DNA from: Geosiphon pyriformis uo1
Lineage: Eukaryota; Fungi; Glomeromycota
NCBI GenBank assembly: GCA_016748015.1
Contig: JAAOMT010000009.1
Span: forward strand, 1,072,459 to 1,136,458
Direction of reading: 5' to 3'
DNA length: 64,000 nt
Both the position numbers and the translations under genes were made by a program. The first letter of the stretch is position 1. Each line of letters starts with the position of its first letter. Under the pieces are notes generated by a model, which was not told where the DNA came from, made no database searches, and was given only the letters and a program-made list of their open reading frames with translations. This document shows, one piece after another, positions 13,498 through 48,140 of the stretch.

Positions 13498-13935
13498 TTA
13501 TTCTCTTCTTTAATATTAAGCTTTTGTAAAATCTTCTAAATTTCTCTTTTGTATCAATGTTGTTGCTGTAATTTCTATTGTTATTTTTAAATCTAATTTT
13601 ATACATAACTGGGGTTTTTAACTATAGTGGTCTGTCCAAAATATCCAAGTTCAAATCTTACATCTGTATTATGTATATGTTCAAACATAATGCCCTCATT
13701 ATTATTATTGAATTTAGTTAATTTTTGCTCTATTGTAAGATCTAAAAGCATGATATATTGTTTGGTGTTTGAAGTGGAGTTTGAATTTGTTGTTGGCTGA
13801 GTTTGAATTGTTATTGTTATTTAGTAAAGTTTAAATTGTTGTTATTATTAGTAGAGTTTGAATTAGGATTAAGTTCCAATTCCAATTTCCATTTGTTCTC
13901 GCTGATTGGCTCTTTTTTGAATATATGATGTATGA

Positions 13936-14822
13936 TGTTACAGATGATTATTTGGAGTCTCAAATCAAATAACAAATCTGTAACTTGGTGCTCAATATCT
14001 TGACAATGCTGGTAATACTGGTACATTGGTTGTATATGAAGGTTTTAGAGTTGATGAGTCTTTTGTATAATGAACAGAAATTCTTTGTTTAGGTTATTCA
14101 CAGTTTTCTTGTAAGTTGTTTCCCAATTTCTTTCTCAGCTTGGTGGGTGGATTTATTCTGGCATTTGTGCCTTTTTGGTAAGTTATTCATTAATATATAT
14201 ATAATTTTACCCTTATTTCTGGGTCTTTTACCAGGCTATCCATGATGTTAATTACTCAGCACTTTAATCCTTAATCAATTAGTATTTAACAAAAAAAATC
14301 AAAGAAAGCAAGAAATAAAAAAAAATAAAGAAATAAGCCAAGGTGATGTGCAAATTAGTATCTCATCAATAGCTGTGATTAAGAACTATTGTTCCAGCGT
14401 AGTTAAGTATCAATTATTATCAACATGAAGTGTTGATAGTGGAGAGTAAATTTGGATAGTAGATAATTTATTTAATATTTGTGGAAGGAAGATTTCTAAC
14501 TTCTGATTCTGCTCTTTCTACTTTTAATACTACTGCTATATATACATAATTGATGTTCTACAAAATTGCTCATATTCCCAAGTAATGTGCTATGATTTCT
14601 TGAGCAATGCTCATATTGCTGTACAATGTGCTCTAATTTTCTAATATTGCTTCACATTGCTGTACAATGTGCCGTGTTTTCTGATATTACTCCACATTGC
14701 TGAGCAATGTGCCATGATTTTTGATATTGCTCCACATTACTGAGCAATGTGTTTATGTGCTAAATACTATTTTTTTATTGGTCTATTATTTTTTTATATC
14801 TGTTTTTTTTTTATGAGTAACA
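13936..14822 (-). repeat. Element B 3' LTR
   Basis: TGTTACAG...GTAACA; direct repeat of 33499-34384. Confidence 0.93.
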
Positions 14823-14835
14823 TTATCTCCTTCTT

Positions 14836-15472
14836 TTAATATTGAGCTTTGTCGAAATCTTCATTTTGAATTAATTCTAATACTTCTTTTTCAAGTATTA
14901 TTTGTTCGACTTTGTTTCTCACATCTTCTACTTGTGTATTGTTCATTCTTCCCCATTGGTTAATGGTTATTGTTTTTATTTTAGAGTGTAACAGTATTTC
15001 TGGGTTGTTTCAAAATATGTTGTGTAGTTGGTATATTGTTTTAACATGTAGTGTTGAATTTGTTTTCTTTCTGATAAATTCTTCAATTTGTTGTATTATG
15101 TTTTGGTTGAATATTCTCTTGGTTTTTGTTAATATACAACTCCTGAATATTCAACTTTTAACCTAACTGATAGTAACAATATAATATTGGAAGTTGTTCT
15201 GTTTATTGCTTCCAATTCTCTTTTGTAAGTTTTTTTATTGGTGCTATAATAAGTATTTTCCCAAATGTGTTTTTTACTTTTTCTATTATGTTGTCTGATC
15301 AGTTCTTATTATTTTTTGGTAATTGCTGATATGGTGTATTCTTTGTCTTTTTTTTGGTGTTTTGATAGCAAATTGTTTGGTTGTTAACAATAATTTTTAT
15401 GTCTAAAAGTTGTTAACTTAAGACTTGGAACAATTGTTGAGCTATGGCATAAATATAATCTGGTATTTTCAT
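14836..15472 (-). pseudogene. Element B 3' accessory ORF (unknown function)
   Basis: Manual translation MKIPDYIYAIAQQLFQ...IFNQNIIQQIEEFI...KTIYQLH...TITINQWGRMNNTQ...FDKAQY*. Homologous to the ORFs at the same position in C and D. One +1 frameshift. Confidence 0.75.
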
Positions 15473-15531
15473 TTTTTTGGTTGCCTTTGTTGCGTATACT
15501 GTGTCTTTATATATTTTTTTATTGTTTGATT

Positions 15532-16908
15532 TTATGTGTTTGGTCCAATGATTATGATTGGTTCCAAATCTTATGGAATTTTATCTGGTTGAACTAGTAT
15601 TCGTTGTACTTCTAATTGTGGAATGTTATTGGTAGATGATGATGCTATTTGGTAATATAGTTTCAGTCAATCACCATGTACTGCTTTGGCTAAGATTTTG
15701 TTGTCTCATTTTAGTTTATAAGCTCCATTTCCAAGAATTTCTTCTATGTGAAATGGTCCATCCCATTTGGGATTGAATTTTCTACTCCATTGTTTTTCTG
15801 CTTTGATATAATATAAAAGTACTTTGTCTCCAATTTTGAATTCAACTGGTTTATCTGGTAATTGGTCATCGTATTATTCTTTTTGCTTTTCTTGAGACTT
15901 TTGAATGTTATCAGCTGCTTTTTGTCATCTGTTTTCTAGTGTTTCTATTAGGTCATAGGTTTTTCTCAACAATGTTTCTTGGAAATTAGCTTCTGTTATT
16001 GGTTCTATTGGATATGTGCTGATTTTTTTCTCAACTGGTAATGTTGTTGTTCTACCATATACCAATTCAAATGGTGTTGCTTGTGTAGTATTTTGTCTTA
16101 TTGTCCAATAAGCAAATAATATAGATGGTATAAACAAATCTTATTCATTTTGGTTTTCTTGACTGATTTTGGTAATTGCTTCACACAGTGTTCTATTAAA
16201 CCTTTCAACTAGTCCATTTGTTTGTGGATAATATGGTAATGATAATGGTCTTTTTATCTTAAATCTCTGACTTAATTCTGTTAATGTTCTATTTACAAAA
16301 TGAGTTCCTTGATTTGATAGTAGTTCTTTTAGACATCTATATCAACATATTAAATCTTGATGGACGAATTCAGCAATGAATCCTGCATTTGCTCTTTAAA
16401 TGGTTTTTGCTTCTGGCCATTTAGTGAGATAATCCATGGCTACTGCAATATATCTGTTGCCTTTACTGGTGATTGTTAATGGTCCAATTAAGTCAATTCC
16501 AATGCAATCAAATAGTTGTCTTACTTTAATTGGTCTTAATGGTTTACTTGGTCTTGTTCCTTTTCTTCTTTGACAAGCATTACAATTTTGAACATATTGA
16601 ATGATGTTTGGATATATTGATGGCAAATAATATCTTTTTCTGGTTCTTTCTATGGTTGCCTCTTTATAAAAATGTCCTGCTGTTGGATTTAAGTACATGT
16701 TGAATAATATTGTCTCTTTCTCTGGTTTTGTGATTACTCTGATTGGTTGATCTAGATTTCTTCTGTTCTTCTGGTAGAGTATATTTTGATAATTGATAAA
16801 GTATTTTGATTGTTGTTTTATGTTGTTTTGTTTCTCTTGAGATAATTTTTCCTTGAACAATTGAGTATTTATATAATGCTGAAGTTGTTGGTATTTTTGT
16901 GTGTTTAT
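15532..16908 (-). pseudogene. Element B integrase (HHCC-DDE-GPF)
   Basis: PTAGH..CNAC, GIDLIGP, GLVERFNRTL, KWDGPFHI; no chromodomain seen. Confidence 0.9.
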
Positions 16909-16938
16909 CTTTTATTATATTTTTGGGTTGAAATGTTT

Positions 16939-19516
16939 TTAGATTTGTCTTATTCATGACAGTCCGTTGGCATTTCCATTGTCTTTTCTTTTTTTATAAT
17001 GTATTGTATAATTAAATGGTAAAAGTTCTATTTTCCATCTGACATGGTGATTGTCTGCAAATTCTTGTTTCTGGATTGAAGTCAATCCTTTGTGATCAGT
17101 GTACACTTCAAACTTTTGACTCAAGTATTTCTTCCATTTGATGACAGCCCAATAGATAGCTAAGTGTTCTAGTGCTGGAGTTCTATAGTTCTTCTCAGCT
17201 GGACTTAAGCTTCTACTGGTGTAAGCTACTAGATGTTCTTTTCCATCTAATTCTTTCTGTAATAGTACTGCTCCCAATGCTTGACCTGATGCATCAGTGG
17301 TAATTATGAATGGTTTGCTGTGATCTGGATACATCAATACTGGAGCTTGGATAAGCTTTCTTCTTAATGTGTCAAATGCTTCTTGTTGAGCTTTGGTCCA
17401 TTCATACTTTACATTCTTGGTTTGTAGATGGTGAAGTGGCTGAGCCAGTTTTGAAAAATCTTTGATAAAATGGCAATAATAGCCTATAAAACCTAAAAAT
17501 ACTCTTAGTTCTGTCAAGTTGGTTAGTACTAGAAAGTTCTTAACTACTTTAATCTTGTCTGGATCTGTTTTGATTCCATCTTTGCTTACTACATGTTTCA
17601 AAAACTTGAGTTTAGTTTTTCCAAAGAAACATTTGGTTGCATTTAGTTTCAATTCTGCTCTTCTCAAATTTTCAAACACTTGTTGGAGATGATGCAAATG
17701 ATCATCAAATGTTTTTAAGAACACATTGGTGTTATCCAAGTATATAACTACTGATTTCCATAGTAATCCAGTATAGACAATTTCCATAAGCCATTGGAAT
17801 GTTGCTGGAGCATTTATCAAGCCAAATAGCATGACTTCAAACTCAAAATTTTCTTCTCTTGTAGTGAACACTGTTTTTTCTTTGTTGGCTAGATCCATGG
17901 CTACTTGCCAGTAACTACTATCTAAATCTAGTGTTGAAAACCATTTATTTTCTCCAAAAGCATTAAATAGTTTTTGGATCTTTGAAGTTAGATAGCTATC
18001 ACTTTTTGTTACTCTATTCAGTTTTTGGTAGTCTACACAAAAGTGGATTTTCCCATTTTTTTTATGGACCAGTACCACTGGTGATGACCATGGATTCATT
18101 GATGGCTGAATTAGCCTATTGTTAAGCATTTGGTTAATTTCTTGACAAATGATCTTATGGCTAACTGGTAGTACTCTGTATGCTCTTTGTTTAATTGACA
18201 TTGCATCTCCAGTCTTGATCTGATGCTGGATAATATTGGTTTGGCCAAATTCGTTTTCATTGGCAAAAATGTTATTGAAATTGTTGAGTAACATCTTGAA
18301 TTGCATCTGTTGAAGTGGATCTAGATTTTCCATGTTTATTTGTTCTAATTGTTCTGGTTGGAGCAGATAACATTCACTTCTTCCATAGATGGTTTGTAAT
18401 GTAATGTCCACATATCCACAAAGCTGTAGAAAATCTGGAATGTGGTTTGGTGGTTGATCCTCAACTTCGGTGGTTAAATATCCAATAATGGTTCCCTTTG
18501 GTATTTCGATGACACTTTCAATTGTGTTATAGATGAGAATTTTTATATTTTTGGGGCTTTTGGCTGATATGTAGAGATTAGTGAGTCCAATCTCTCCTGA
18601 TTTACAAATAGTGGCTTCTGCTTCAAACAATTGAGCTTGATCTCTTATTTCTTTTTTTATGGCTAACATATACTAGTCATATAGTGAAATGAAAATTGTT
18701 TAACAGGTTGAAATAATTTCTCCTTTGTTAACAATTTTTTCCTCTGCCATATTAACTGGTATATCTATTCTACTCATTGATTCAAATCCCTGTATTCCTT
18801 TTGTTGTTATACCTAATTTTTTTTTTCCCACTGAAACTAACTGGGCTATCTTTACCAGAGGTAAAAATATTGCCTGTGTTATTTTTTTATTTGGTTCTAT
18901 AATATAGGTCTTTTCTGAGTCATTTTATAGCATAGCAATGATATTTCTTACGTATTCTGTATCAATTATTCCTTCTCTGATGTTGATTTTTTTTTTCACT
19001 AAACTACTCCTAAATACTAATTAAATCATAGTTGTTGCTAAAATTTTCAGAGCTATTTTGAGATCAATATATGTGCACAAATTTGGTTCCAATTTGATGG
19101 CTTCTTTTCCCGAATATCTCAGATCAAATCCTGCATCAGTATTATATGCACGTTCTGGCATGATACTTTTGCCATTATTGCTGAACCATCTAAGTTCTTG
19201 TTCCTTGGTGAGATCAGGAAATGTGATATATTGTTTATAGTTTGAATCAGAGTTTGAATTTGAGTACCAATCATCGCCATTGTTATTACCATATTGAATA
19301 GAGCTGAAACCAGTGTTTTTGTTGTTATCATTATCGGAGTTTGAATCAGAATTGAATGTTGATTCCAATTCAGATATGCAGCTGCTGATTGGTTTTTTTT
19401 CCTCTGAAATTGTGTAGATCATGTGTGGTGGTGGATTGTAAATGAGATCACACTCATTACAATATTGAAAGTCATATGAAATTAAATAGTGGTCACATAG
19501 TTGAGTGTTTAACCAT
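16939..19516 (-). pseudogene. Element B polyprotein, 3' part: dUTPase, RT, RNase H
   Basis: DAGFDLRY (dUTPase motif 1); PWSSPVVLV, FCVDYQKLN, YLDN (from YLDD); TDASGQALGAVL, YTDHKGL. Confidence 0.93.
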
Positions 19517-20178
19517 TGTTACCTAAGTAGAAAAACCAATCCAAAATTATGAAGAAACGTGACCAAAAATGTGACATAACACAGAATAACACGCAATAAC
19601 GTTGGATAATGCATTATAACATTAGATAATGTGTTATAATGCAGGATAACACAGAATAGCACACAATAACATATGATAATGTGTTATAATGCAGGATAAC
19701 ACAGAATAACATGTAATAACATCAGATAACATGTTATAACATAGGATAACTAGCAATAATGTAGAAAAATGAAGCAATAACAGAAACAACAAAGCAATAG
19801 CTAGTGATAGCAAGACAATTAAAAGCAATCCTGTAAAACCAAAAGAATGTATAAAAGCAAGTAGTTGTAGAAGTGAGAAAAGAGAGAGAAGAAAAAAATA
19901 GATATGAATCTCTAGACCAGAAATTAAAATATCCATACACCTTTATCCTTTATTATCTTTCCTATTTCATCTCCAGAAATAAATCAATTATTAAAAGAAA
20001 TCAGAATTGCGAATTCATGTTCTCGAACTTTCATGAAATTTACGTGAATTAACCCTTGTCTCGTACCTCCATTCTAGAACAGATGCTCTTAGCATAATCG
20101 CCTCAAACCTATTAACAATTTAGACTAATCAATCTTAATCATGGCGATTAATGATACTAATTTATTTTTTCTCTCTTT

Positions 20179-20225
<47 letters not shown>

Positions 20226-20632
20226 CTTTTTTTGTCTTAATTTTTTGTGGAGCGGCAACATAGTAAAATTGACTGTCTGGAAATAGACTTCGTGATAGCC
20301 TGGTAAAAGAGAGAAGCTCCCCCTAAGTTTTGGATATTAACATTATCTTGTTAGCTTACCAGAAGGACGAAAAGACAATGCCAGACCCTAACAACTGTGC
20401 TCGTTAGCTCAGAGAAGAAAGCTCACATTTACGAAAAATGTTGCAATTGACGAAAGACAAACTCTATGCCTTATAACCAAAGAACTCAATGGGTAAAATT
20501 CACATCCAGGAATAGACCTTCAGAGACTGATAATTAAGACTAAGCCAACAGAATTATGTGGAAGATGCATCGTCAATAATTGAGAGCACCAAACGTTACC
20601 ATTTTCCATACTCGCCAAGTTTATCCATAACA
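19517..20632 (+). repeat. Element C 5' LTR
   Basis: TGTTACC...TAACA; CCAAT, ATAAC array, TATAAAAG, AATAAA and a poly-T tract. Confidence 0.95.
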
Positions 20633-20634
20633 TT

Positions 20635-20651
20635 TGGTGCTTCCTGTGAAG
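20635..20651 (+). promoter_or_regulatory. Primer-binding site of C (TGGTGCTTCCTGTGAAG)
   Basis: TGG begins 2 nt after the LTR end; related sequence in A, B and D. Complement of a tRNA 3' end ...CACAGRRAGCACCA; elongator tRNA-Met is a candidate, unverified. Confidence 0.8.
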
Positions 20652-20694
20652 TTATAAATCCACAGAGACAGAGCACCCCCAAAAATACATAAAA

Positions 20695-23600
20695 GTGGCG
20701 ACTATTGGAACAATAGGAAAGGACCACTCCTCGTACAGAAAAGCACTATTTTAATACTTTCGAAAAGACCTAAGAATACCAGCAGGAACCGCTTACGCAG
20801 AAAGTAATTTTTGTAACTATATCAACACAAAAATCGACTGCTTGTTAGGCTACGCAACTGATACAGGAAGACTTGGAGAACAAATCCATCAAAGCTTACT
20901 AGGGTACTCAACAGCCACGACTACCTGAGCAATCACTGAAACTCTGCACATAATCAATACAGACATTAAATATTATGTGGCACAACAATTCCCTCAAGTA
21001 CAACAACCAGTGGAATCCGACCCTGAGGAATACGAAAACGAATCCAACAACCCTGTAACTGCCCAAACCAAGTCTATGGTCAACAAGAAACCAAGGGTCC
21101 TCTTCCCAACAACTCCATCATACCATCAGACACCCCAAAATAGAATTGTATTCAACCCACCTCCGGAAACCCAGTTAGAAACACCACGAATTCTTGGAAA
21201 TCCACACCCTTGGAATCAACACAGTTGGACCAAATCACTAGGAGAATACGGATCACTGTTTGGAAATCTTACCCCAGCAGCCGGTCAAACAGAAGGAAAC
21301 CCGTCAACTTGGAAACAGCCACCAGCACAAAACTTAGCAGAATCAGCATCTCCCCTGATGGAAGAAACAGCTATCTTACAACCTATTGGTTCAAGCGACA
21401 AAGGAAAGCAACCAGCATTAGCACCCAGAGAACACTCGAATATGCAGACACCAATCTCTTTAAACATAACCAGTAACACCCCACCCATTAACCGGATTAT
21501 GGCTTACTGGGATATTGCTAAATTGGAAAAATTCTCTAGTGAAAAAGATAATGCATATTTTTGGATCACAGATGCTGAGAAAGCAATTGCTGCTAACAGT
21601 TGGAATGACGACTGCACAGTTTAGGCACTGCCATTCTTTCTGACCGGAACTGCCGATTCGTGGTACCAGAGTCTGGCAGAGAAGCCTACCTTCTTTACCG
21701 AGTTTAAACTCGCATTTCTGCAATACTTCTGTGACCCCAATATGTTAATCTGATTGCAGAATCAATTCAGCATAATTAAACAAAAAGATCATGAAGCCAT
21801 AACTACTTATTTTGGACAATTTAATCAAATTCTGTGTTAAATATTAGCTATCAAAAAGGACTACTATACTGCAGTGCAAGTTCTTAATCAATTCATTAAA
21901 AAATTGTGGAGTAGTATTCTAAGATCTGTAAGACTCCACCATCCGACCAGTTTACAAGACACTGTCACTCTTGCTCATGATTTTGAGTCTGCAGAACAAG
22001 AAGCAAATCATACCCAAGCCGTTAATTTAGCCATTAATGGAACCTCTGACATCAATGCAAAGATAACCCAATTGAGTGAGAAACTAACTCAGAAAATTAA
22101 GAGATTCTTAGCCAGAACTACAGGAACTTACCAACCACCTCAACGAAGAGAAAATAACAACAACAGTAGATACCCACAGCAACAGCAACAACCTTGGAGA
22201 TCCAATCCTTGTAACTGCTACTACTGCCAGAAACCTGGACATATTGCTCATGACTGCAGAAGGAAGATCATGAACCAAAATCAAGAAAACCCATACCAGC
22301 AACCCAGATATCAGCAAAACATAGTACCCCAATATTCCATACCTCAGAATTAACTGCTCCTATATGCACAACAAATTCCGTACACTCAACCACCACCCCA
22401 GAATTATTATCAACCACCACCAATGACACAAGCAATCCCTCACTATCAAACTTCCCCTTACAGTCCGTCCAGACCATGAGCTATAGACTATAATCAAGGA
22501 TGAAAGAATCCCAACAACAATCAGATGCAAACCAACAGTGGACCATCTCGACCAATTCCTTGCAGTCCTGCCCAATCTCGACCAACACCAACTGGATACC
22601 CGAATCAAGCTTCCTATCTCAGTCTTATGGAAAACCAGGGTTTTGATAAATCTACACCTGTGGAAGGGGGGGATATAGAACAAATCTCCCAACCTTCCAA
22701 GCAAACAAAAAGCAATATCCTACCAGCCACTATTACTGAAGACATCACTCTAGCCACCATATTTTCTTTTGACATCAATAATTTGAACACACATAGCCTT
22801 TTTAGTGGAGCAGTCATCAATCAGGATAAACCAATAACGGCCCTATACACCGATGCCAGAGTCAGAGGAATAGACATTAAATTAATCCTGGATAGCGGAT
22901 CAGCCGGTAGCATAATCACGAAGCAGCTCATGGACCAACTAGGTCGCCGAGTAGACTGTACTGCTACTGTTCAGATCATTACAGCAGATGGGAACACAAA
23001 AACCCCAATAGGAGAAATTGACAACTTCCCCTTCAAGATTAATGGAATCCAAATCCCTACCAAAGTACTCATCATGAAAGCTACTCAATATCAAGCTCTA
23101 GTAGGAAACGACTGGTTGTCAAAAGCCAACGCTACTCTCGACTAGAACACCCAAAAACTTCAACTCACGTTCAACGGACAGCATGCCTGAGTTCCAGCTA
23201 CATGCGGACACTTTAAAAACCAACGTATCGAAGAACCCCTTATTGAATTCAAAAACATATCAATACCACCAACCATCAAGACCTATCAGGTTTCATGGGC
23301 AGATAATTATCGAACTGAACTACCCCCACCACCAACCTGGAAAGAAAAAGGAAAAGGCAGAGCCAAAGAAGAACCCCAATCATCATCACTAGGATATGTA
23401 ATCTCAGACCAAAGAAACTTATTTTACCAACCCCCAAGACTAATATGTGTCGATTGTGAAAAAAAACTATCCACTATGGGCACATGTATCAGGAACAATG
23501 AAGAATGGCCCACTACCACCAAATACTATTGCAGGCCTTGTTTACTGAAAAGATTTGGACAACCAAAACAACAAGGCAAGTGGAACCACATGCCGTGCCT

Positions 23601-26469
23601 TGTATGTGGCAAAATCCTGCCAGATAAAGGACTCTGGAATGATGTGCCTGGCAGAAGAGAAACATGCAATGAGACTTGTCAATACATCATATTAATCAAC
23701 AATTGGGTATGAAAGGGAACCCCTATCAAGAATGCTTGGAAATGAGCATTCAACAGGCTAGATAGTTATCCACACAATGACCACGAAATCTGGAGAATGG
23801 CAAATGCCAAGGCCGAAAGTGCCATGCCCGAAGAAATACGAGAAATTAAGGACAACTCTTGGATGCCCAAATATACTGGACCCGACTACCCCAAGGATGA
23901 TTTCTTCACAGATGACCCAGATGCATTTCAGAACCGATATCAGGAATTGGCCCCAACTTGTGAGGAACAGGAGCAAAGGTTGGCTGATTTGAATACCAAA
24001 CTATGTGATCACTGTTTGATCTCCTATCACTTCCAGTACTGCGATGAATGTAATCTCATGTTCAATCTACCTCCAAGAATACTGTTTCCAATCACCAAAC
24101 TACCTGAACCCAAAGAAGAGGTATTGATCACTGAGGACATGTTGTTTCAAGATCCAACTGAGGATACTGAAACAGAATAGTATCTTGCATATCCCGACCT
24201 ATCCAAAGAATTAGAGCTAAAATGGTATAGTGACAATAAGGAAGAAATCTGCTTCAAAAAAGCGCATAACACCAATGCCGGTTTTGATCTACAATACTCT
24301 GGACAATCACCCATTATTATAGCCCCACATTCCCTCGTAAAAATAGATCTTAAGATAGCATTAGAAATTCCTGTTAGTACAATAGTACAAGTTGCCTTTT
24401 GATCTAGTCTAGCCAAAAAAGGAATCAACATAAAAGGAGGAATCATCAATGCTGGTTACACGGAAAACATCATCGTGATGTTACAGAACAATTCAAACAG
24501 ACCCTACAAAATAGAATCACAAGAAAAGATTGCCCAAACTATCTTCCTATCCCTAGTCAAAATACCCCAATTAACCCCGGTAACAATCCGAGAAGAGTTA
24601 GGCCTCACTGCTCAAGGAATCAATGGGTTTGAATTAAGTGGAAGAGGAAACATACTAATTAATTTTACGGAGGAAGACAGTGACCAAGTAGAATTTATCC
24701 ATACTGACACCATCATTTCTATTCCCCCATACTGACAATACATTCTCAAGGTGAATCGAAAGATCCAAGATCAAGCCCTATTATTCAAAGCCAGTCCCAA
24801 AATCTGTTCTTTAGCCGATGTTGCTAATCTATACCTACTGGCCAAAGTCCATAAACACTTCAAAATCCCCATCCACAACTCAACAGAAGATGTTATTGAA
24901 ATCCCTGAAGGGACCCTCATTGGTTTTATATCTGCAGATAGTCAGAATTCTGAAAAACCCCAGTCCATTCCAGATTTTGCACAATTATTCTTATTCTGTG
25001 ACATTACCTTACAAGTATGGAATTTGCCAAAAAAAAGTTACTTGTTTACACCAGAAGAGATCAATAAATTGAATTTATGAAATTTAAGTACTCTGCAACA
25101 AATGCAACTCAAAGTCTTTCTGAATCAGTATGCCGATGTCTTTGCCAGCGAAAATAAGTTTGGACACACCGACATCATAAAGCATCAGATTGATACAGGA
25201 GATGCTCGACCAATTAAGCAATGAGCTTACTGCGTACCCCCATCTGGCGATAACCTAATTAAGCAAGAAGTGCAACAGATGCTTGATAACAGCTTAATCA
25301 AAGAATTGTTAAGCTCTTGGTCCTTGCCAGTAGTCTTGGTCACCAAGAAAAACAGAAAAGTGCGATTCTGCATAGATTATTGAAAACTAAATAGCATCAC
25401 ATGAGGAGATAGTTATCCTACTCCCCTCATCCAGGAAATTCTGAACAATCTAGGGAAAAAGAAATGGTTCTTGTCATTAGATTTAGCAAGTGGTTACTGG
25501 CAAGTTGAAATGGACTCCAAAGACAAAGGAAAAACAGCATTTACCACTCAAGATGGAAACTTCGAGTTTAATGTAATGCCTTTTAGACTTTGTAATGCTC
25601 TTGCCATGTTTCAACACCTGATAGATGTAGTATACAAAGGAATCCTTTGGAAATCAATAGTAGTCTACCTAGATAACACAAACGTGTTCTCCGAAACATT
25701 TGAAGACCATCTGCTCCATCTGCAACAAGTCTTCAAATGCTTTCATAGTGCTGGATTGAAACTCAATCCCGAGAAGTGCTTCTTTGGAAAAACCGAATTA
25801 AAATTTCTAGAACATGTAATCGGCAAGGACAGAGTTAAACCCAATCCAGATAAAGTACAAAAAGTCAAGGATTTTCCAGCCCCAATCAACCTTAGAGAAT
25901 TATGAAGATTTCTAGGATTAGCAGGATATTATCATCAATTTGTCAAAGGTTTCTCGAACATCACAAAACCACTTCATTAATTGTTGTCCAAATATGTACC
26001 GTACTTGTAGAAGGAAGATCAACAGAAAGCATTCGACTATCTTAAGCAGCGATTGATCACATCCCCAATCTTAATTTATCCAGATTTCACTAAATAGTTC
26101 ATTGTTGCTACGGATGCCTTAAAAAATGCTTTAGGAGCAGTCTTATCACAGATAGGACTGGACAATAGAGAACATCCAGTTGCCTACACTAGTCGCAGCA
26201 CTAGTCCAACAGAAAAGAATTATAGCACAACAGATCTGGAATGTCTCACCATTTATTGGGCCATACAGACTTGGAAACATTACCTCAGTTAACCATTTAA
26301 CCTATATACCGACCACAAAGAACTTATTTGGTTACTCAACAATCCACAACTAGAAAAAAAATATGCGAGATGGAGTACTTATCTGTAACAATTCCCACTC
26401 AAAGTCCATTACAAGGAAGGATCCAAGAACACCAATGCTGACAGTTTGTTGAGGATGCCACAAACTTAA
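20695..26469 (+). pseudogene. Element C single gag-PR-Cys-rich-dUTPase-RT-RNase H polyprotein (1924 codons)
   Basis: The ORF-track pieces at 20977, 21874, 22525, 23476, 23797, 24475, 24751 and 25471 are all in frame with GTG 20695. Motifs CYYCQKPGHIAHDC, LILDSGSAGS, AGFDL, YLDN, YTDH. Confidence 0.93.
24220..24645 (+). pseudogene. dUTPase domain of element C
   Basis: Five trimeric-dUTPase motifs in order: AGFDL, (R)SSLA, GIINAGYT, EKIAQ, QGINGFELSG. Equivalents in B (~18770-19190) and D (~49975-50390). Confidence 0.9.
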
Positions 26470-26479
26470 TCCCAGACCC

Positions 26480-27846
26480 ATGGACACACTCACTTATTAA
26501 CAACTACATCAGTACCTATCAACACTATGTTTCAAGGAGATATTATCTCAACAGGAACAGAGTACCATATGAAAACAAGCCCGAAATTATTTTATTCAAG
26601 ACAACCAACTATATCGATGAGAACGCCGAAACCACCCCAACCCATAACGACTAATCACGGACAGTGAAAGAGAAACTATACTATATAATGTGCACTCAGA
26701 TCCAACTGCAGGACACTTTAACAAAGACACTACCCTCAAAAGAACACTAAACTTATACTATTGGCCAACAATACACAAAGACATTTTCAAATACGTGCTC
26801 AATTATAATGCATGCCAGCAAAGAGAAGAAGCAAGATCAACAGAACCACTTCGATCTATTCCAGTTGGAAATCTATTTGATAGAATCAGGATCAATTTAG
26901 TTGGACCTCTTTCAATTACATCCCAAGGAAATCACTATATCACTGTAGCCATAGACTATCTTATAAAATGGCCAGAAGCCAGAGCAATCCAAGTGGCTGA
27001 TGCCAAAACAGTCGCCAAATTTGTGCATCAAAACCTAATTTGCTGACATGGATGTCTGAAAGAATTATTATCTGATCAGGGAACACACTTCATTAATAAT
27101 ACACTGACTGAACTAAGCCAATGGTTTGGAATAAAGAGACCCTTATTGTCACTATACCACTCACAAATGAACAGACTGGTAGAATGGTTTAACAGAACAC
27201 TGTGTAAAGCACTAGCAAAAATAAGTCATGAAAACAGACAAGAATGGGACTTATTCATATCTTCTGTACTCTTTGCATACCAAACATTGAAACAAAATAT
27301 GACTCAGTTCACACCGTTCAAACTAGTCTATGGAAGAAAAGCTACGTTACCGATTGAACGAATGATACCATCATATTCAACAGAAACAATTAATGAAGAG
27401 AATTTTGAGGCTATCTTACACCAAAAAATATACCAGCTAATGGAAATGTTGGAAAACAATCAAAGAACAGCAGCTGACAATATTAGTCACGCTCAAGAAC
27501 GACAAAAAAAAAACATGATAAACACCTGCCAGAACAACCAATGGAATTCAAGATTGGAGACCAAGTACTGTTACATCATACAAAAGCTAAGAAACAGTGA
27601 AGTGGAAAGTTTGATCCAAAGTGAGACAATTCGTTTCACATACACGAAGCATTAAGAAATGGAGCTTATAAATTACGATTGGAAGACAGAATTTTAAAGA
27701 AAATAGCACATAGAAATCGGTTAAAAATTTATCATGTAAAACAGGAATCATCGTCATCAGTACCTCAACTAGGAACACAAATTTCATTAATCAGACCAGA
27801 AGATATACCATGAGATCTGGAACCAATTATCGTTATCGAAACGTAG
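26480..27846 (+). pseudogene. Element C integrase, separate ORF
   Basis: Own ATG 10 nt after the pol stop, in the +1 frame. HSDPTAGH..NAC, INLVGP, SDQGTHF, LVEWFNRTL. One frameshift in the A-run at ~27505. Confidence 0.9.
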
Positions 27847-27926
27847 ACAACGGGCAGCCAATTAAATTGGGGAATTCAAATATATATAGCATCCAAAAAG
27901 CAGCAAGAAACAATAGAAATTTCAAC

Positions 27927-28655
27927 ATAGATCTTTCAGATCAAATTTTAAAATTATCTAAACAATTATTTGAAACAATTCAAAAATTGACATCTCAAAT
28001 AGAAATAACAATTAATAAAAAAGAAATACAGTACAAAGATAAGAGCAGGAGAGGGAAGGATGAGAGTTCAATTAGAACTAAATGTTTTCTCTCCTACTCA
28101 CCATCCGAAAGGCAATGTGAGAGGAAAAATTGCCTTCGGGCAGGAGGTGGAAAAGAAGGAGGCAAAGAATGAGAAAAAGGTTACAAAAGAAGATACTTGG
28201 TTCCTGAGCTCGAAGAAATAAAACAAGCTTTAGCTCATGGGACTGAACTCCCTGAAACAGGGGAGTGGACACCTGACAACACCCAGGAATGGAAAGAAAG
28301 ACTTTCTCCAGCTTATTGGTTTTACAAAATTGGAGAACAGCTTAACTTGAAAACACCATATGAAGACCTCAGCCAGAAAATGTTCAACAAAGAAGCAATA
28401 CAACAAATAAAAAAATTTGTAGAGAAAAACAACCTGACTCTACATTACAAAGCAGCATACCGACTATATGTCACCTTCCAACATTGCCCAAACGTACTAC
28501 TGAATGGATCTATGAAAATCATAATGGTTAACAGCATAGAACAAATAACCAATCAACAGTTCAAAGACCTACAAAAGGCAATACTCGAGGCAACAATCGA
28601 ACATTACATGAACAAAGCCACAATAACAGATACATATGGTTTCGCAGGAGCTTAA
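27927..28655 (+). pseudogene. Element C 3' accessory ORF (unknown function)
   Basis: ORF-track pieces 27810..28172 and 28197..28655 share one frame, separated by a TGA (probably from CGA). The homologous start aligns to ATA at 27927. Ends just before the PPT. Confidence 0.78.
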
Positions 28656-28659
28656 TTTT

Positions 28660-28675
28660 AAAAAGAGAGAGATAA
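28660..28675 (+). promoter_or_regulatory. Polypurine tract of C
   Basis: AAAAAGAGAGAGATAA directly before the 3' LTR; equivalents in A, B and D. Confidence 0.85.
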
Positions 28676-29330
28676 TATTACCCAAGTAGAAAAACCAATC
28701 CAAAGTTATGAAGAAACATGACCAAAAACATGACATAACACAGAATAATGCACAATAACGTTGAATAATGCGTTATAACATTGGATAACATGTTATAACA
28801 CAGGATAATACAGAATAGCGTGCAATAACATAGAATAACATGTTATAATGCAGAATAACACAGAATAACATGTAATAATGTCAGATAATGTGTTATAACA
28901 TAGGATAACTAGCAATAACATAAAAAAACGAAGCAATAACAGAAACAACAAAGCAATAGCTAGCAATAGCGAGACAATCGAAAGCAATCCTGTAAAACCA
29001 AAAGAATGTATAAAAGCAAGTAGTTGTAAAAGTGAGAAAAAAGAGAAAAGAAAAAAATAGATACAAACCTCTAGACCAGAAATTAAAATATCCATACTCC
29101 TTCATCCTTTATTATCTTTCCTATTTCATCTCTGGAAATAAATCAATTATTAAAAGAAATCAAAATCGCGAATTCATGTTCTCGAACTTTCGTGAAATTT
29201 ACGTGAATTAACTCTTGTTTTATACCTCCGTTCTAGAACAGATGCTCTTAGCATAACCACCTCGAACCTATTAACAATTTGGACCAATTGCTCTTGATCA
29301 CGGCGATTGACAATACTAATTTATCTTTTC

Positions 29331-29364
<34 letters not shown>

Positions 29365-29771
29365 CTTTTTTTGTCTTAATTTTTTGTGGAGTGGCAATAT
29401 AGTAAAATTGACTGTCTGGGAATAGACTTCGTGATAGCCTGGTAAAAGAGGGAAGCTCCCTTTAAGTTTTGGATATTAACATTATCTTGTTAGCTTACCA
29501 GAAGAGCGAAAAGACAATGCCAAACTCTAACAACTGTACTTGTTAACTCGGAGAAGAAAGTTCACATTTACGAAAAACGTTGCAATTGACGAAAGACAAA
29601 CTTTGTGCCTTATAACCAAAAAACTCAACAGGTAAAATTCACATCCAGAAATAGACCTTCAGAAACTGATAATTAAGACTAAGCCAACAGAATTACGTGG
29701 AAGATGCATCATCAATAATTGAAAGCACCAAATGTTACCATTTCTCATACCCACCAAGTTTACCTGTAACA
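28676..29771 (+). repeat. Element C 3' LTR
   Basis: TATTACC...GTAACA; direct repeat of 19517-20632. Confidence 0.95.
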
Positions 29772-32700
29772 CCGTGCTAACCACTTTTTCTGTTCTTTTT
29801 TGTAGGTGCCAAAGTTTGATAGTGTTCATAAAATTCTTCTGGTTCCAGGAGATTTATGGCTGGTTTTTTGTCCCAGTCAAGTTCTATAGGTTCCAATAGG
29901 TTGTTTTTGATCTCCCTAATTTTTTCGGGTGTCATTCCTTCTATTTTTATGAGTGCCATTCACCAGATCTTATTGTTGTCATGTGGACAACTGTCTAATT
30001 GTTGTACTGCTCTTTTCCAGACTGCTTCTATCAATGTTTCTTTCCTTATCCAGTCACTGATTAGAATCATGTATTGGCATGATTTGTTGCATGTTCTTTC
30101 TCGCCCTGGAATGTCATTCCATATTCCTTCATCCAAGAAAGTTTCTCCACAAGTGAGACAAGATTGGTTGTCCCAATTTCTTTGCTTCTTTGGTTGTTCA
30201 AATCTTTCTATGATACATGTGTGACAGTAGAATTTAGTTGCTGTTGCATATTTCTTATTGTCATCACAACATGTGCCCATTGACAACAATTTTTTACTAC
30301 AATTGATACATATAAGTTTTGGTCGACAATAGATAGATTATGGTGGTGTAGTGTAAGTGTAGGAGTTAAAAAAAATGGTGTTGGTGGTTGTTGTTTTTTT
30401 TTCTTTCTCTTTTTCCTTTCCTTTATCATTTTCTTCTTTCTATTCCCAGTTTGGTGTCTGCTCATTTTTGTCATTGTTAGTTCAGGTTAGCTTGTCAGTC
30501 TTTCAGGTAATTTCTTCTCTTTGTTTACCCTTTCCAATATTGTCTTATAATAGTATTGGTGGCAGCTCATTGTGGTCTTTGTCGGCCCATAAGACTTGAT
30601 ACACTTTCCAGATAGGTTTCTTTTTTTCTTCTTCCAATTCGATAAGTGGGGTTGTCGAGTTGGTGGTCTTAAAGTGGCCACACGTGGCTGGTACACATGT
30701 GTGTTAACCATTTTGACTGAATTGTAATTTTTGAGTAGTCTAATTGAGTATGGCATTAGTTTTGAATAATCAATCATTGCCTACCAATGCTTGATATTAG
30801 GTTGCTTCTATCACTAGTACTTTGATGGGTATTATGATGCCATTGATCTCAATTGGGAAGTTATTAATTTTGCCAATTGGAGTTTTGGTCACTCCATCAG
30901 CTATAATAATGCATGCACTGGCAGCTCGATTAACCCAGCAACCTAATTGGTCCATAAGTTGTCATGTGATGATACTGCCAGCTAATCTACTATCTAGGAT
31001 CAATTTGATGGCATGGCCATCAACTTTTGTATCAGTGTACATGACAGTAATGGGTTTTTTTTCCAGAGCAGCTCCACTAAATAATGGTGTGGTCAATGGT
31101 TTTTCAAGTTCAAATGAAAAGATGGTGTCCAGTGATTTGTTCTTGGTGATAATAGCTGGCAGAATGTTGCTGGTAAGTGTTAGATGTTGGTTGGTTTCTG
31201 GGTTATTGGGTTGGGCATCTTCTGGGGTGACCAAGAGACTTAAATAGTTCTGAAAATTCGGGTTTTGGATATATCTGGTGCCCGAATTCTATTGTTGAGA
31301 GCCTAATAGTTGTGCCATAGAACTGAAGATCGGTTGATGAACTACCATTGATGATCTCCAGCTTTGTTGGGTCAATCTCGGCCTTTGGATTCCATTTTGA
31401 AGTAAGTTCTGTGGCAGTGTTTGAATTTGTTGGGGCTGATATATTACCTAAGGCTGTGGCTAATAAATGGGTTGTGGCTGTGGCTGATAAATTGCTGGTG
31501 TCATTGGTTAATAAATTGACGTTTAATATACTGGTGGTTGATAAGATGGCTGCTGCTTCATAGGCAAGTAATTCTGATGATATAGTTTGGAGTTCGGTGA
31601 GTTATTTGGAATTTGAAATCAGTAATCAGGATTTTGATATTGATTTCCCAATTATTGGTTATTTAAGCAATAGCAGCAATCAATTTGTAAGTGTTTTTGT
31701 TTACCACAATAGTGGCAGACACGTGTTTTCTATTGCCACTGTTGGTTGGTCGATGATGATAGATGTGACTGATTTTGGAAGTGATTCACATTTCTGGAAT
31801 TATTGCATCATTGTGGTGGTTGATAAATTGCATGATTGTCAGCTAAGTATCTCTCTAATTTTTGATTGATGGAATTACTAAATTGTTTTAATTTGGAATC
31901 CAATTTAGATGATCCATTCATTACTAGATTAATGGCTTGGATGTGGTTAGCTTCAAGTTCAGTGGCTTCAAAATCTCTGGCATTTGTGACAGCTGCTTGC
32001 AGATTAATGAGATGCATTGGATGTATGCATTGCAAAATGCTACTGCATAATCCGCGAATAAACTGATTTAGAATCTAGGCTACTGTGAAATAATTGGGAT
32101 TAATGACTTGAATCTAGTGCAAATTCCTGTGGAAGCATCCTAAGTAAGTAGTGACTGCTTCATTTTTTCTTTGTTTGATAGTAGTGAAGGTGGTTGCTAG
32201 CCTGTTAATGCTGTTATTGTTGCTGAAGTATCTTAGGAACTCTATTTTGAATACATTGAAATCTTGGGGTTTGTTAATTAGGCTTTAGTACTATGAATTA
32301 GCAGTATCTTAGAGAAAATATGGAATGGCTTGCATGGCTCTGGCATCATTCCATCCATTAGCTGTAATGGCTTTCTCCATATCATTTAGCCATACTTGGG
32401 CATTGTCCTCTTCACCAGTGAATTTTTCGAGTTTGGCTATTGGTGTGTATGCTATTGGGTCTAAGTTGGGTTGTAGCAGTTGTTGGAGTAGTACTAGTGG
32501 CTGTTGAATCTGCTGGTGTGGTTGTTATAGTGGCTGGCCAATCAGTTCAATTGGTGGTGGATTAATGACAATAACGGGAGATAAGTCCAATTGATTAATT
32601 AGATCAGAGTTTTGATTGTTCTAATTTGGTGGTGGTTGAATATTCGGAGTTTCAAGTTCCAGGTTTTCTAAATTTGAATTTTGCTGGGTTTGAAAATTCG

Positions 32701-33436
32701 GGGTTCCAAATTCCGAGTTTTCTATGATCGGGTTCTGGTAAGTAAATTCTTGATCTTCAGATTCTTCTTCTTCCTCTTTTTCTGATTCTGTTATTTCCCA
32801 AAGACTCATGTTTCTGAAATCTGGTTGAAATGGTGGTAATTAAAATCCTGATGGCATTGGCAATTGCAATTTAAATCCTTCAAAGTAATCACTGTATGGT
32901 CCTAATAACTCTGCTTTTTGTTGTTTACTTTGAAATGAGAAGCATCCAAAGGTTGATGTCACATTTGATGTGAACATATCTGTTAATGAGATGTTGATGG
33001 CACTTCTGGGCATATAATAGTATGATGGATGGGTGGGTGATTCAACTTGGGTTTTCTTCCAATTGAGTAGTTGAATTTGTTTTGGTGTTACTGCTGGGGT
33101 TTGCAATCTTCCTTTGCCTTTATCTGTATAGGTGATGGGAAATTGTTGTTGTGTATACCTTTCAATAGTTTGATTGATTTCCCTAATAATTGGTGCAAAA
33201 CTGTAGTTTCTTGGTAAGCTAGTATGTTGAAATAATTCTGTATAGAAATTTTCTCTTGCAGATTTAATGTTAACTGTTCCTCTTAAGCAGTCTGTGATTT
33301 TATCATTGATGTAAAAATTGAAGGCTGATTCTACTGAGAAATAATTATTGTTCAATCCTAATTGTTGACTGTACTGTTGGAATAAAGATTTGGCAAATCC
33401 TAAATAGTTTGTTTCTATGATTTCTGATTCTGCCAC
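29772..33436 (-). pseudogene. Element B polyprotein, 5' part: gag, CCHC, protease, Cys-rich domain
   Basis: PIAKLEKFTGE capsid-like start, CHYCGK knuckle, KLILDSRLAGSI protease and CxxC repeats. Reading continues across the C insertion. Confidence 0.88.
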
Positions 33437-33498
33437 TTTTGGATAATTGTTGATGGTACTGGTTCTCTGTAAAATTATACCTTATAGAGAGCACCAAA

Positions 33499-34384
33499 TA
33501 TTACAGATAATTATTTGGAGTCTCAAATCAAATAACAAATCCATAACTTGGTGCTCAATATCTTGACAATGCTGATAATATTAGTACATTGGTTGTATCT
33601 GAAGGTTTTAGAGTTGATAAGTTCTTTGTATAATGGACAAAGATTCTTTGTTTAGGTTATTCACAGTTTTCTTGTAAGTTGTTTCCCAATTTCTTTCTCA
33701 GCTTGGTGGCTGAATTTATTCTGGCATTTGTGCTCTTTTGGTAAGCTATTCGTTAATATATATATAATTTTATTCTTATTTCTGGGTCTTTTACCAGGCT
33801 ATCCGTGATGTCAATTACTTAGTGCTTTAATTCTTAATTAGTTAGTATTTAACAAGAAAAATCAAAGAAAGCAAGAAATAAAAGAAAATAAAGAAATAAA
33901 CCAAGGCAATGTGCAAGTTAGTATCTCGTCAATAGCCATGATCAAGAGCTATTGTTCCAGCATAGTTAAGTATCAATTGCTATCAACATGAAGTGTTGAT
34001 AGTGAAAAGTGGATTTGGATAATAAATAATTTATTTAATATTTGTGGAAGGAAGATTTCTAACTTCTGATTCTGTTCTTTCTATTTTTAATGCTACTGCT
34101 ATATATACATAATTGATGTTTTATGAGATCATTCACATTCTTGAGCAATGTGTTATAATTTCTTGAGCAATGCTCACATTGCTGTATAATGTGCTCTAAT
34201 TTTTTAACATTGCTCCATATTATGCAGCAATATGCCATGCTTTCTAACATTGCTCCACATTGCTGAGCAATATGCCATGATTTCTGACATTGCTCTACAT
34301 TGCTGAACAATGTGCTTATGTGCTAAATACTATTCTCTTATTGGTCTACTATTTTTTTATATCTGTTTTTTTTTATGAGTAACA
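33499..34384 (-). repeat. Element B 5' LTR
   Basis: TATTACAG...GTAACA; adjacent to the PBS. Confidence 0.93.
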
Positions 34385-45146: not shown

Positions 45147-45987
45147 TGTTACAGATGATTATTTGGGGTCTCAAATCAAATAACAAATCCATAACTTGGT
45201 GCTCAATATCTTAACAAGACTGGTAACACTGGCACGTTGGTTGTATCTGAAGGTTTTTAGAGTTGAGTCTTTATATAATGGGCAGAGATTTAATTGATGG
45301 TTTTATCCATAACTTTCTGAAACCACAGTTTCATCAAATTTTTTTCTTAATGTGGTGGCCAGTAATCTTCCTGGTAAGCTATCCTTAAATCTATGAGTGT
45401 TCTACCCTTGTTTCGTGGGTCTTTTACCAGTCTCTATGATGTTTGTATCTCAGCACTTAATCCTTAATCAATTTCAGTAAAACCAAAGAAATAACAACAA
45501 AAATAAAAGAAAATAAAAGAAAATAAAGAAAATAACAAAAAGCAATTGCAAGTTAGTATTCCATCAATAGCCATGATCAAGAACTATTGTTTCAGTGTTG
45601 TTAAGTATCAATTATTATCAACATGAAGTGTTAATAGTAAAGAGTGGATTGAGATAGTGAATAATCATTTATTAATATTTGTGATTTGGAAAGTTGCTTA
45701 GATAAAATTTAAATGGAGAGGATTTCTAATTAAGGATTCTGCCTTTTTTACTTCTAATACTACTGCTATATATATATAATTGAGATTCCTTAATTCCTCG
45801 ATTCTTTATCTCAGAAATCCTGCAATTCCTTTTAAGAGGAATCCTGGAATTCTAAAATTCTGTAATTCCTTGCTCGGAAAATCCTGAAATTCCTCTTAAG
45901 AGGAATCCTGGAATTCCACATTTACTATGGTTACCTCTAATTGGCTATTTCATGTACTAATATATTTTCTATATTCTATGAATAACA
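45147..45987 (-). repeat. Element D 3' LTR
   Basis: TGTTACAG...ATAACA. Confidence 0.93.
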
Positions 45988-46001
45988 TTATTCCCTCTTT
46001 T

Positions 46002-46638
46002 TTAATATTGAGCTCTGTCAAGATCTTTTAAATCTCCTAAATCTTCTAACTCTAATTCTTTGTCATTGAGTATTTCTTGAACTTCTCTTTCAAGAATGAT
46101 TTGAGTTATCTGGTTCTGCAATTCTTCAAATTGGGTGTTGGTCATTTTTCTCATTTGGTTAATTGTAATGGAGTCCAATTCTGGATTGAGTAAGATTTCC
46201 AGTCTGTCTTAAAATCTCATATGTAGCTAATAGATGGCTCTTGCTTGTGTGATCAGATTGTTCTTTTCCACAAATTGTTCTAGTTGTTGCAGTATTGCTG
46301 TGTTGAATAATCATTTTCTATAAGTTCTAAATGTTCAAGTGCTGTCCCAAGTGGAAGTAACAGAAGTTTCTTGAAAATTTGTGTATCCATCATTTCCATG
46401 TTTCTTTGGTTAACTCTTGATATGTGGTAATACTTGTTGGTTCCTCAATTGCTAATTTTATTTTTAGAACCATTTTGTCGATAGTGTTTTCTGTTTTCTT
46501 TTTACTTTTGTATTTGGATATCTTTCTGGTATCTTGGTATCAAATGGTTTGTTGATTGATAGTAATTTCTATATTCTGTTGTTAAATCAGTTTGAATAGT
46601 TATTGTGCTAGTAAGTAGATGTTATCAGTAATCTCCAT
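46002..46638 (-). pseudogene. Element D 3' accessory ORF (unknown function)
   Basis: MEITDNIYLLAQ.LFKLI..QNIEITIN...LFNTAILQQLEQFVEKNNL...ITINQMRKMTNTQF...DRAQY*; homologous to B and C. Confidence 0.75.
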
Positions 46639-46695
46639 TTTTTTTTGATATCTTTTGTCACGTCTACCATGTCTTTATATATTCTTTTTGGTTGA

Positions 46696-48078
46696 TCACT
46701 TTTTTATGTTTGTGTTGATAACGACGATTGGTTCTAAATCTCATAGAATTTTATCTGGTTTAACTAATAGTCTCTGTACTCCCAATTGTAGAATGTTACT
46801 AATAGATGGTAACATTATATTGTGGTATGGTTTTAGTCGATCTCCATGTGCTGCTTTTGTCAAGATTTTGCTGTCCAATCTTAATTTATAAGCTCCATTT
46901 TCTAGAATTTCTTCTATGTGAAATGGTTCGTCCCATTTGGGGTCAAATTTTCCACTCCATTGTTTTTCTGCTTTGGTATAATGTAAGAGTACTTTGTCTT
47001 CAATCTTAAACTCAACTGGTTTGTCTGGTAGTTGACTATTGTGTCTTTTTTTCTGTTTCTCTTGTGACTTTTGAATATTATCAACTGCTCTTCTTTGTTT
47101 GTTTTCCAATATTTCTATTAAGTCATATGTTCTTCTCAACAATGTTTTCTGGAAATTTTCTTCTGTTATTGGTTCAGTTGGATATGTGTTGACTTCTATT
47201 TCAACTGGTATTATTGCTGTTTTACCATATACTGATTCAAATGGTGTTGCTTGTATAGTATCTTGCTTCATTGTTCAATAAGCAAATAGTACTGATAGTA
47301 TGAACAAATCCCATTCATTCTGGTTTTTTTGGCTGAGTTTGGCAATTGCTTTACACAATGTTCTATTAAATCTTTCAACTAAACCATTTGTTTATGGATG
47401 ATATAGTAATAATAGTGACCTTTTAATTCCGAATCTTTGGCTCAATTCTGCTAGTGTTCTGTTTACAAAGTGAGTTCTTTGATCTGATAATAATTCTTTT
47501 GGACATCCATGTCGACAAATCAAGTCTTGATGAACAAATTTGGCAATGGATTCTGCATCTGCTCTTTGAATTGCTTTTGTTTCTGGCCATTTAGTGAGAT
47601 AGTCCATGACTACTGCAATATATCTATTTCTTTTGCTGATAATTGTTAATGGTCCGACTAAATCAATTCCAATGTAATTAAATGGTTGTTCCACTTTGAT
47701 TGGTTTTAATGGCTCACTGGGTTTTGTTCTTCCTCTTCTTTAACAAGCATCACAATTTTGAACATATTGAATAATGTCTGAATACATTGATGGCCAATAG
47801 TATCTTTTTCTGGTCCTTTCCATGGTTGTTTCTTTGTGGAAATGTCCTGCTGTTGGATCTAAGTGCATGTTGAACAGTATTGTTTCTTTCTCTGGCTCTG
47901 TAATTACCCTGGTTGGTTGATCTGAATTTTGTCTATTCTTCTGGTAAAGTATATTTTGATGATTGATAAAATATTTTGATTGTTGCTTGATGTTATTTTG
48001 TTTCTTTTAAGATAACTTTTCCTTGAACTGTTGTGTATTTATATAGTGTTAAAGCTATTGGTATTTTTCTGTGTTCAT
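46696..48078 (-). pseudogene. Element D integrase, separate ORF
   Basis: ATG at 48078 (MNTEKY..), 62 nt after the pol stop and out of frame. HLDPTAGH..CDAC, IDLVGP, SDQRTHF, LVERFN, KWDEPF. Confidence 0.9.
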
Positions 48079-48140
48079 CTTTTTGTTATATTTTTATTGG
48101 TTTTGGTTTGGTTTTGTTATATTTTTGGGTTGAAATGTTT

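Follow-up and report, generated by a model that had tools for sequence, protein, structure and literature searches.

In Ty3/gypsy elements the integrase is usually the C-terminal part of the Pol polyprotein, and long terminal repeat (LTR) retroelements are thought to load integrase into the particle as part of Gag-Pol. In this report we focused on three copies of a Ty3/gypsy element, named B, C and D, in a 64,000-nucleotide (nt) stretch of the genome of the fungus Geosiphon pyriformis uo1 (GenBank assembly GCA_016748015.1, contig JAAOMT010000009.1, positions 1,072,459 to 1,136,458 of the forward strand; hereafter the window, whose coordinates count from its first letter). They share with Ty3/gypsy elements (Metaviridae) the order protease (PR), reverse transcriptase (RT), RNase H (RH) and integrase, a gypsy-type capsid, RT and RNase H (the RT of C being of RVT_1 type), TG..CA LTRs, a primer-binding site and a polypurine tract (PPT), but differ in that the integrase lies outside the polyprotein with its own ATG and is joined by a conserved third open reading frame of a new family (ORF3). 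Unlike chromoviruses, C has an integrase without a chromodomain, none being found in it or in the Pfam lists of 50 integrase matches, and the additional archaeal-type RNase H of Tat/Ogre elements was not found in C. Judging from their sequences, B, C and D belong to a Ty3/gypsy lineage, present in Glomeromycotina and in soil metagenomes, that encodes integrase in a gene of its own. The overall explanation that we favour, with modest confidence, is that this split is native to the lineage and that integrase is produced by reinitiation on the full-length RNA.

The first important finding is the separation itself. In C, which spans 19517-29771 (+), one long frame (20698..26469 including the stop, +) encodes in Pfam order gag, CCHC, protease, dUTPase, RT and RNase H and has no integrase domain; the capsid domain and CCHC zinc knuckle lie at 21631..22260 (PF19259, PF03732, PF00098), an aspartic protease with intact DSG at 22834..23169, and RT plus RNase H at 25342..26394, with YLDN in C and YLDD in D. 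The Pol stop at 26467, a 10-nt spacer and the integrase ATG at 26480 occupy 26467..26482 (+), the ATG being in a different frame from Pol. It opens a separate ORF (26480..27846, +) with HHCC, core and an SH3-like C-terminus, the last part matching only PF24626 (SH3). Gene order is the same in B and D, both on the minus strand, where the gap between Pol stop and integrase is 45 nt (B; stop at 16956, integrase start at 16908, an ATA) and 62 nt (D; stop at 48143, ATG at 48078). The preliminary description of this DNA had seen one layout in the three copies, which is what we find.

The split recurs in relatives of these copies. Searching with the C integrase returned free-standing proteins, including some from Rhizophagus irregularis and Cetraspora, that cover 99% of the query, although this search was limited to 191-609 residues and is by itself no proof that its matches stand alone. 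A cluster of 42 free integrases, 407-430 residues long, has R. irregularis proteins among its members. A profile built from free-standing integrases was used to collect related loci (L numbers; P numbers denote proteins), of which the best 80 of 543 were kept. An in-frame ATG stands at the integrase start in 68 of 72 of them, at the exact predicted position in 64, the 72 being those of L001-L085 with the integrase N-terminus inside the contig and the fused L081 excluded. Likewise, the Met starts of all 18 aligned intact homologues line up with those of C and D (the B row, being out of frame, was disregarded). At the 68 integrase ATGs, position -3 is a purine in 61 cases versus 54% of internal ATGs, and position +4 is G in 58 versus 34%. 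Loci with intact frames show the split too: L002 has an open 1621-codon Gag-Pol and a 426-codon integrase frame. Continuous Pol-integrase frames were seen in the controls L081, L086, L087 and L091, whose integrase identity is 24-32%, and a search of viral contigs gave one distant fused element. Four of the loci, L082-L085, come from short contigs deposited under bacterial genomes, where they are probably fungal contamination.

The state of the window copies invites the idea that mutational decay split a once continuous pol. B, C and D are all dead. Catalytic residues of RT and integrase are no longer present in C, whose long frame (20698-26466) contains 25 internal decay stops and whose integrase has a 1-nt slip of its own at about 27504; frame changes occur inside the gag-RH region of B and D, and none in that of C. 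The claim that C offers a 1924-codon frame free of frameshifts needs adjusting accordingly: no frameshift is present, but the frame has 1923 codons plus the stop, and the slip lies in the integrase. Mismatches between paired LTRs are transitions in 103/106 (C), 88/93 (B) and 87/91 (D) cases (95-97%), which suggests methylation-linked or RIP-like (repeat-induced point) mutation; they show no single dominant dinucleotide context, and the CpG observed/expected ratio inside C is 0.4. A TGA at 27811 within the C integrase, whose tail continues to 27846, is probably decay as well, and a TGA at 25078, considered as a PR/RT readthrough site, was rejected, as B and D read through this position and sister copies have Gly. 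Against decay as the source of the split, intact relatives such as L002 are split alike, and so is the 42-member cluster of free integrases. We therefore hold decay to be the least credible of the explanations considered, and a native split to be nearly certain.

The geometry of the junctions speaks to a second alternative, in which programmed recoding of the RNase H stop, by frameshift or readthrough, would yield a Pol-integrase fusion. Across 45 junctions (42 loci plus B, C and D; in L021 the ATG at 5809 was used and not that at 5785, and in L010 and L011 the Pol stop is the end of the in-frame tail), the gap ranges from -20 to +727 nt with a median of 62, and the three frames are used 13, 18 and 14 times. 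Eleven gaps are within 20 nt, 24 measure 21-100 nt and 10 exceed 100 nt. Fusion would be geometrically permitted in 15 junctions, C included, and three R. clarus gene models do join RNase H to integrase. In the other 30, among them B and D, neither one frameshift nor one readthrough could lead into integrase, because its frame contains a stop, and the R. clarus models lack the NADALSR end of RNase H that is kept in the sister locus L068, so these apparent fusions are likely to be predicted introns across the stop. In the public Rhizophagus gene models P0102, P0104, P0109 and P0234, integrase is joined to RNase H or to ORF3 by what look like predicted introns. We consider recoding at this stop very improbable, and the proposal that the separate integrase needs a non-standard route of expression is supported.

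Phylogeny places the split elements together, with qualifications. A search with RT-RH among long proteins, which is not biased toward free integrases, listed 120 matches, of which 112 entered a FastTree phylogeny of 144 rows with 29 loci rows and B, C and D (multi-copy gene models P0093-P0100 and loci with fewer than 250 residues of RT-RH were left out). All 23 Gag-Pol proteins without integrase domains among the 112 fall in the clade of the window copies (support 97), along with 26 split-labelled loci, B, C, D, the three R. clarus models and two fused rows, P0212 and L087. An IQ-TREE analysis of 56 hand-chosen rows recovers the same clade at 96/95. We left P0130 and P0160 out of the split count, since they stand amid fused elements although they have no integrase domain. 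Members with a named source belong to Rhizophagus, Cetraspora, Gigaspora, Glomus and Geosiphon, most members being soil contigs; the nearest fused relatives are animal and metagenomic elements with 41-47% RT-RH identity. Constraining 30 split rows to group together is not rejected (approximately unbiased test, p 0.51) and gives a slightly higher likelihood, and the trees allow, rather than demonstrate, a single origin of the split. Several points count against a lineage so neatly defined. Because free integrases supplied the profile that retrieved the loci, the sample is skewed to split elements and gives no measure of how frequent the split is, and it includes near-copies; the G at +4 may reflect conservation of the protein; P0212 and L087 lie inside the clade in both unconstrained trees; none of 200 IQ-TREE bootstrap trees isolates the split rows; and the trees hold database matches and no named reference from GyDB, REXdb or Repbase. 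Even so, the search for the same layout in less-mutated relatives, as the preliminary description had proposed, led to intact loci without a continuous Pol-integrase frame.

How such an integrase could be translated is the second question that we addressed. Passages of PMC5972666 describe reinitiation at LINE-1 ORF2 over a 63-nt spacer, SART1's use of a structure that follows the stop, and stop-restart translation in fungal victoriviruses and hypoviruses. All resemble the present elements in having a downstream enzyme ORF after a long ORF, which here follows a short spacer or an overlap at part of the junctions, and the LINE-1 spacer is close to the median of 62 nt found here. They differ in that LINE-1 and SART1 are non-LTR elements and victoriviruses and hypoviruses are RNA viruses, whereas here the downstream product is an integrase and spacing varies widely. 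By analogy, integrase could be made by ribosomes that reinitiate on the genomic RNA after the Pol stop, a reading to which we give about even chances. Post-termination 40S subunits would resume scanning across a short, AUG-poor spacer or, alternatively, restart at an overlapping stop-start, and the resulting integrase level would be low, as would be needed alongside an unfused Gag-Pol frame. Without fusion to Pol, integrase would have to enter the particle on its own under every mechanism, perhaps packaged in trans by binding RNA or Gag.

Spacer composition is consistent with reinitiation in part. The 22 spacers of up to 100 nt contain 7 ATGs versus 17.2 in dinucleotide shuffles, none of 300 shuffles being as low. 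Gaps within 20 nt at 11 of the 45 junctions also favour it, and in L025, L026 and L041 the stop of an inserted ORF overlaps the integrase ATG. The inserted ORF in L026 (521-1234) is a captured Mrr_cat_2 endonuclease ORF. Other observations tell against this mechanism. Short spacers are likewise poor in the control word CAT (13 versus 20.1; 7/300 shuffles), so the ATG deficit is partly compositional; the 10 spacers longer than 100 nt are not ATG-poor (38 versus 37.0); several short ORFs in the spacers of L030, L051 and L082 fit scanning poorly; and a +1 frameshift is geometrically possible in C. In addition, some relatives have a stop or frameshift inside gag-pol as well, so that few ribosomes would get as far as the RNase H stop, a point in favour of a separate mRNA.

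Foamy viruses express Pol from a separate mRNA, and integrase and ORF3 might here come from a subgenomic mRNA through an internal promoter or splicing. This would tolerate any gap length or frame and would work equally where gag-pol is itself recoded. It would also suit the long spacers, whose numerous ATGs mostly lie outside their last 70-100 nt, and an ATG deficit that extends over no more than the last 60 nt or so upstream of the integrase AUG (32 versus 62 in mononucleotide shuffles). However, no YAG is present in 7 of 33 spacers, no common splice-acceptor or TATA position was found across these 33, and overlapping stop-starts, including those at inserted ORFs, would be superfluous. We regard a subgenomic mRNA as a tentative possibility, less probable than reinitiation. 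Candidate recoding sites within gag-pol of the relatives comprise an in-frame TGA followed by CTA, which we take to be a readthrough-type context, after the protease (L022:2882, L030:870, L031:3290, L037:902, L051:3358, L085:2879), an unusual position for readthrough, or before it (L021:3552, L050:374); L056 and L068 have TTTAAAC ahead of a stop in place of TGA-CTA.

An RNA motif of 38 nt was found in 22 of 88 loci (L001-L005, L007-L016, L019, L020, L038, L048, L052, L064 and L083; e.g., L008:1138-1181), always just 5' of the integrase ATG, ending 0-37 nt before it, and nowhere else in these loci. In the model, built from 18 of the 22, the stem covaries, with 29 cells changed on both sides versus 7.9 in shuffles that disregard relatedness among loci (0/500 as high; slid controls gave at most 6); the loops are nearly invariant and a 2-bp bulge-loop pseudoknot is possible. 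Rfam had no match in the 16 loci searched. Together with the A-rich spacers of B and D, the motif raises the prospect of internal ribosome entry on the genomic RNA, via an A-rich leader or, in one subclade, via the motif. We think this unlikely: the motif is missing from most split loci, and its role might just as well be to bind a protein, to assist reinitiation or to act as a ribozyme. It is also missing from B, C and D, the best match in the window (E 2.3) being located elsewhere, and therefore bears on the lineage and not on the window.

The third ORF is another significant element of this architecture. In C it occupies 27927..28655 (+) and ends 4 nt before the PPT (28660..28672, +), and in B and D it begins at 15472 and 46638, respectively. 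As had been proposed, it is conserved: a family of 525 clusters at E<=0.001, typically of about 140-150 residues, sits between integrase and PPT in relatives. A hidden Markov model (HMM) of the relatives' ORF3, run against the six frames of the window, matches C best (E 1.1e-5), then D (8.8e-4) and B (0.15), and B ORF3 is directly similar to that of C (E 1.5e-9). Because C shares an N-terminal extension with B, D and L040, we placed its start at 27927 (ATA) and not at the alternative ATG at 27810. The latter overlaps the TGA at 27811 and may be a decay product, since the integrase tail reaches 27846 and the ORF3 alignment begins at 27927; it is doubtful that integrase and ORF3 are coupled through an "ATGA" at 27810.

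The function of this protein was approached through its predicted properties. No Pfam family was matched by more than 1 of 133 members. The median isoelectric point is 8.8, and 19-residue hydropathy exceeds 1.6 in 1 of 117 members, the maximum in C being 0.91. A confident model (predicted local distance difference test score, pLDDT, 96.7) is all-helical, with eight helices, and gave no match at E<=0.001 in Foldseek searches of PDB or BFVD, the best in VIA having Z 4.5; the best PDB sequence match, ribosomal uS13 at E 1.4, was not used. The prediction is of a soluble and basic helical protein whose role is most likely that of an RNA-binding accessory. It is comparable to the extra ORF (env or captured genes) that errantiviruses and other gypsy elements carry between integrase and PPT, according to passages of PMC6431247, but it is short and basic and has no transmembrane segment. 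It shows no env features, and a role as env was rejected. An ORF3 match follows the integrase in 29 of the 88 loci, and many of the rest are truncated; eight lack ORF3, a PPT-like tract lying 22-201 nt past their integrase. It would accordingly be dispensable in part of the lineage, and the possibility that the split requires it was discarded, as these eight are split. A captured NUDIX ORF occupies the ORF3 position in L029 (1945-2886).

Caulimoviruses, which to our knowledge have no integrase, offer a parallel in the translation of several ORFs from a genome-length RNA. The gap range tolerated by their transactivator TAV, from a few to 700 nt in passages of PMC5972666, is near the range found here. 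One could therefore imagine that ORF3 is a translational transactivator of new fold that aids restart over long spacers, with integrase packaged in trans and the 38-nt motif representing a new eukaryotic class of reinitiation or ribosome-entry RNA; elements lacking ORF3 would then depend on overlapping stop-starts. Such overlaps occur in 4 of 8 loci without ORF3 versus 1 of 15 with it, rows that are not independent on the tree. ORF3 is missing from eight split elements and has no match to TAV or any other family, and no known transactivator was matched in Pfam, PDB sequence, Foldseek PDB/BFVD or VIA searches, as far as their matches are listed. We view this combined scenario as improbable.

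The remaining Pol extras have a narrower distribution than the split. The C dUTPase (24250..24594, +; PF00692, E 8.6e-15), whose motifs are better preserved in sister copies than in C, lies between PR and RT, as it does in PosPlaTy3-5, other fungal gypsy elements and planarian Burro, and dUTPase is likewise present in pol of Tuber Tmt1 and Phanerochaete elements (passages of PMC2864245 and PMC6431247). This likeness is one of position only; those passages do not mention a separate integrase, and C differs further by its Cys-rich (CxxC) domain and lack of a chromodomain. The CxxC domain (23434..24072, +; delimited by alignment) is common to B, C and D, which keep its cysteine pairs, and is likely to bind zinc. 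It has no Pfam match, and its 41 database matches are all Geosiphon pyriformis gene models, one of which (P0381) is 100% identical to C over the aligned residues. AlphaFold gave an unusable model of the CxxC-dUTPase region (mean pLDDT 35). Neither domain had a match in the 96 related loci searched, and no dUTPase family appears among the 120 RT-RH matches listed.

On the favoured reading the two domains are later additions in Geosiphon families, where the dUTPase would probably exclude uracil from cDNA, as proposed for other elements that bear one. The idea that the extras mark the lineage was not upheld: dUTPase and CxxC are local, dUTPase is already known in fungal elements, and ORF3 is lacking in eight relatives. 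Similarly, the "distinct, virus-like" lineage suggested at the outset remains distinct, but virus-like is excessive for elements in which ORF3 has no env features and can be absent. What defines the lineage is its free integrase; ORF3 is common in it, and dUTPase and CxxC are local to Geosiphon families. Between dUTPase and RT (24661-25060) lie 130 conserved residues in which B, C and D are 41-44% identical and which might represent a second dUTPase-like domain in degenerate form. In relatives, a tail of 200-400 residues with a conserved Cys/His cluster follows RNase H (P0105, P0108, P0111-P0113, P0116, P0118, P0121, P0123, P0128, P0134 and P0170; L002, L013, L015 and L018). These post-RNase H tails have no Pfam match, C has no second RNase H, and the notion that CxxC is this tail relocated was dropped for want of an HMM match.

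The window holds further repeats, and LTR sequences make up 41.2% of the G. pyriformis genome (a passage of PMC11952901). C is inserted within the CxxC domain of B (13935..34384, -; LTRs 13935-14822 and 33498-34384). Its own LTRs, at 19517..20632 with TG..CA ends and at 28676..29771 (both +), are 88.8% identical and flanked by a 4-bp target duplication whose copies differ by one transition. They have no blastn match to the B and D LTRs at E<=1e-10, in agreement with the distinct LTR family initially reported, and RT-RH identity is 59% between C and D and 81% between B and D. The primer-binding site (20635..20652, +) starts 2 nt past the 5' LTR with TGGTGC, a start also seen in B, D, L013, L023 and L057; within 20635-20677 and the B and D equivalents, the site is followed by sequence partly complementary to it, and a fold-back is possible. 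D (45147..55996, -) has LTRs at 45147-45987 and 54408-55281 and a third, partial LTR in tandem (55282-55996), its target duplication flanking all three. A related LTR pair (12571-13495 and 35025-35910, 84% identical) encloses B, with little internal sequence remaining. The window also holds three decayed LINE-like elements, at 1089-7729 (+), 57206-63867 (+) and 39500-43900 (-), with an RRM-like ORF1, APE endonuclease, RT and RNase H, and a segment (8001-9000) with GC content down to 7% that contains local direct and inverted repeats.

We found no description of a split integrase layout in the literature, although supplements, subscription journals or Repbase entries could hold one; it is unmentioned in passages of PMC2864245, PMC11952901, PMC3248453, PMC13468544, PMC10508981, PMC5972666, PMC6431247, PMC13465315 and bioRxiv 10.1101/2021.03.30.436303. 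The lineage is misannotated in public data, with introns predicted across the stop and contigs placed in bacterial bins. From it come a new protein family of about 140 residues, confidently modelled yet unmatched in fold, and a compact RNA motif that is likewise new; either could be used in yeast reporters. If the transactivator scenario were true, ORF3 would be a fungal counterpart of caulimovirus TAV, and a polycistronic genome-length RNA would be a property of the whole clade. More broadly, the existence of a diverse and successful clade with a free integrase indicates that the coupling of Gag-Pol to integrase is dispensable, and raises the questions of how fungal ribosomes gain access to a second and third cistron after an ORF of 1300-1900 codons and how a free integrase is loaded.

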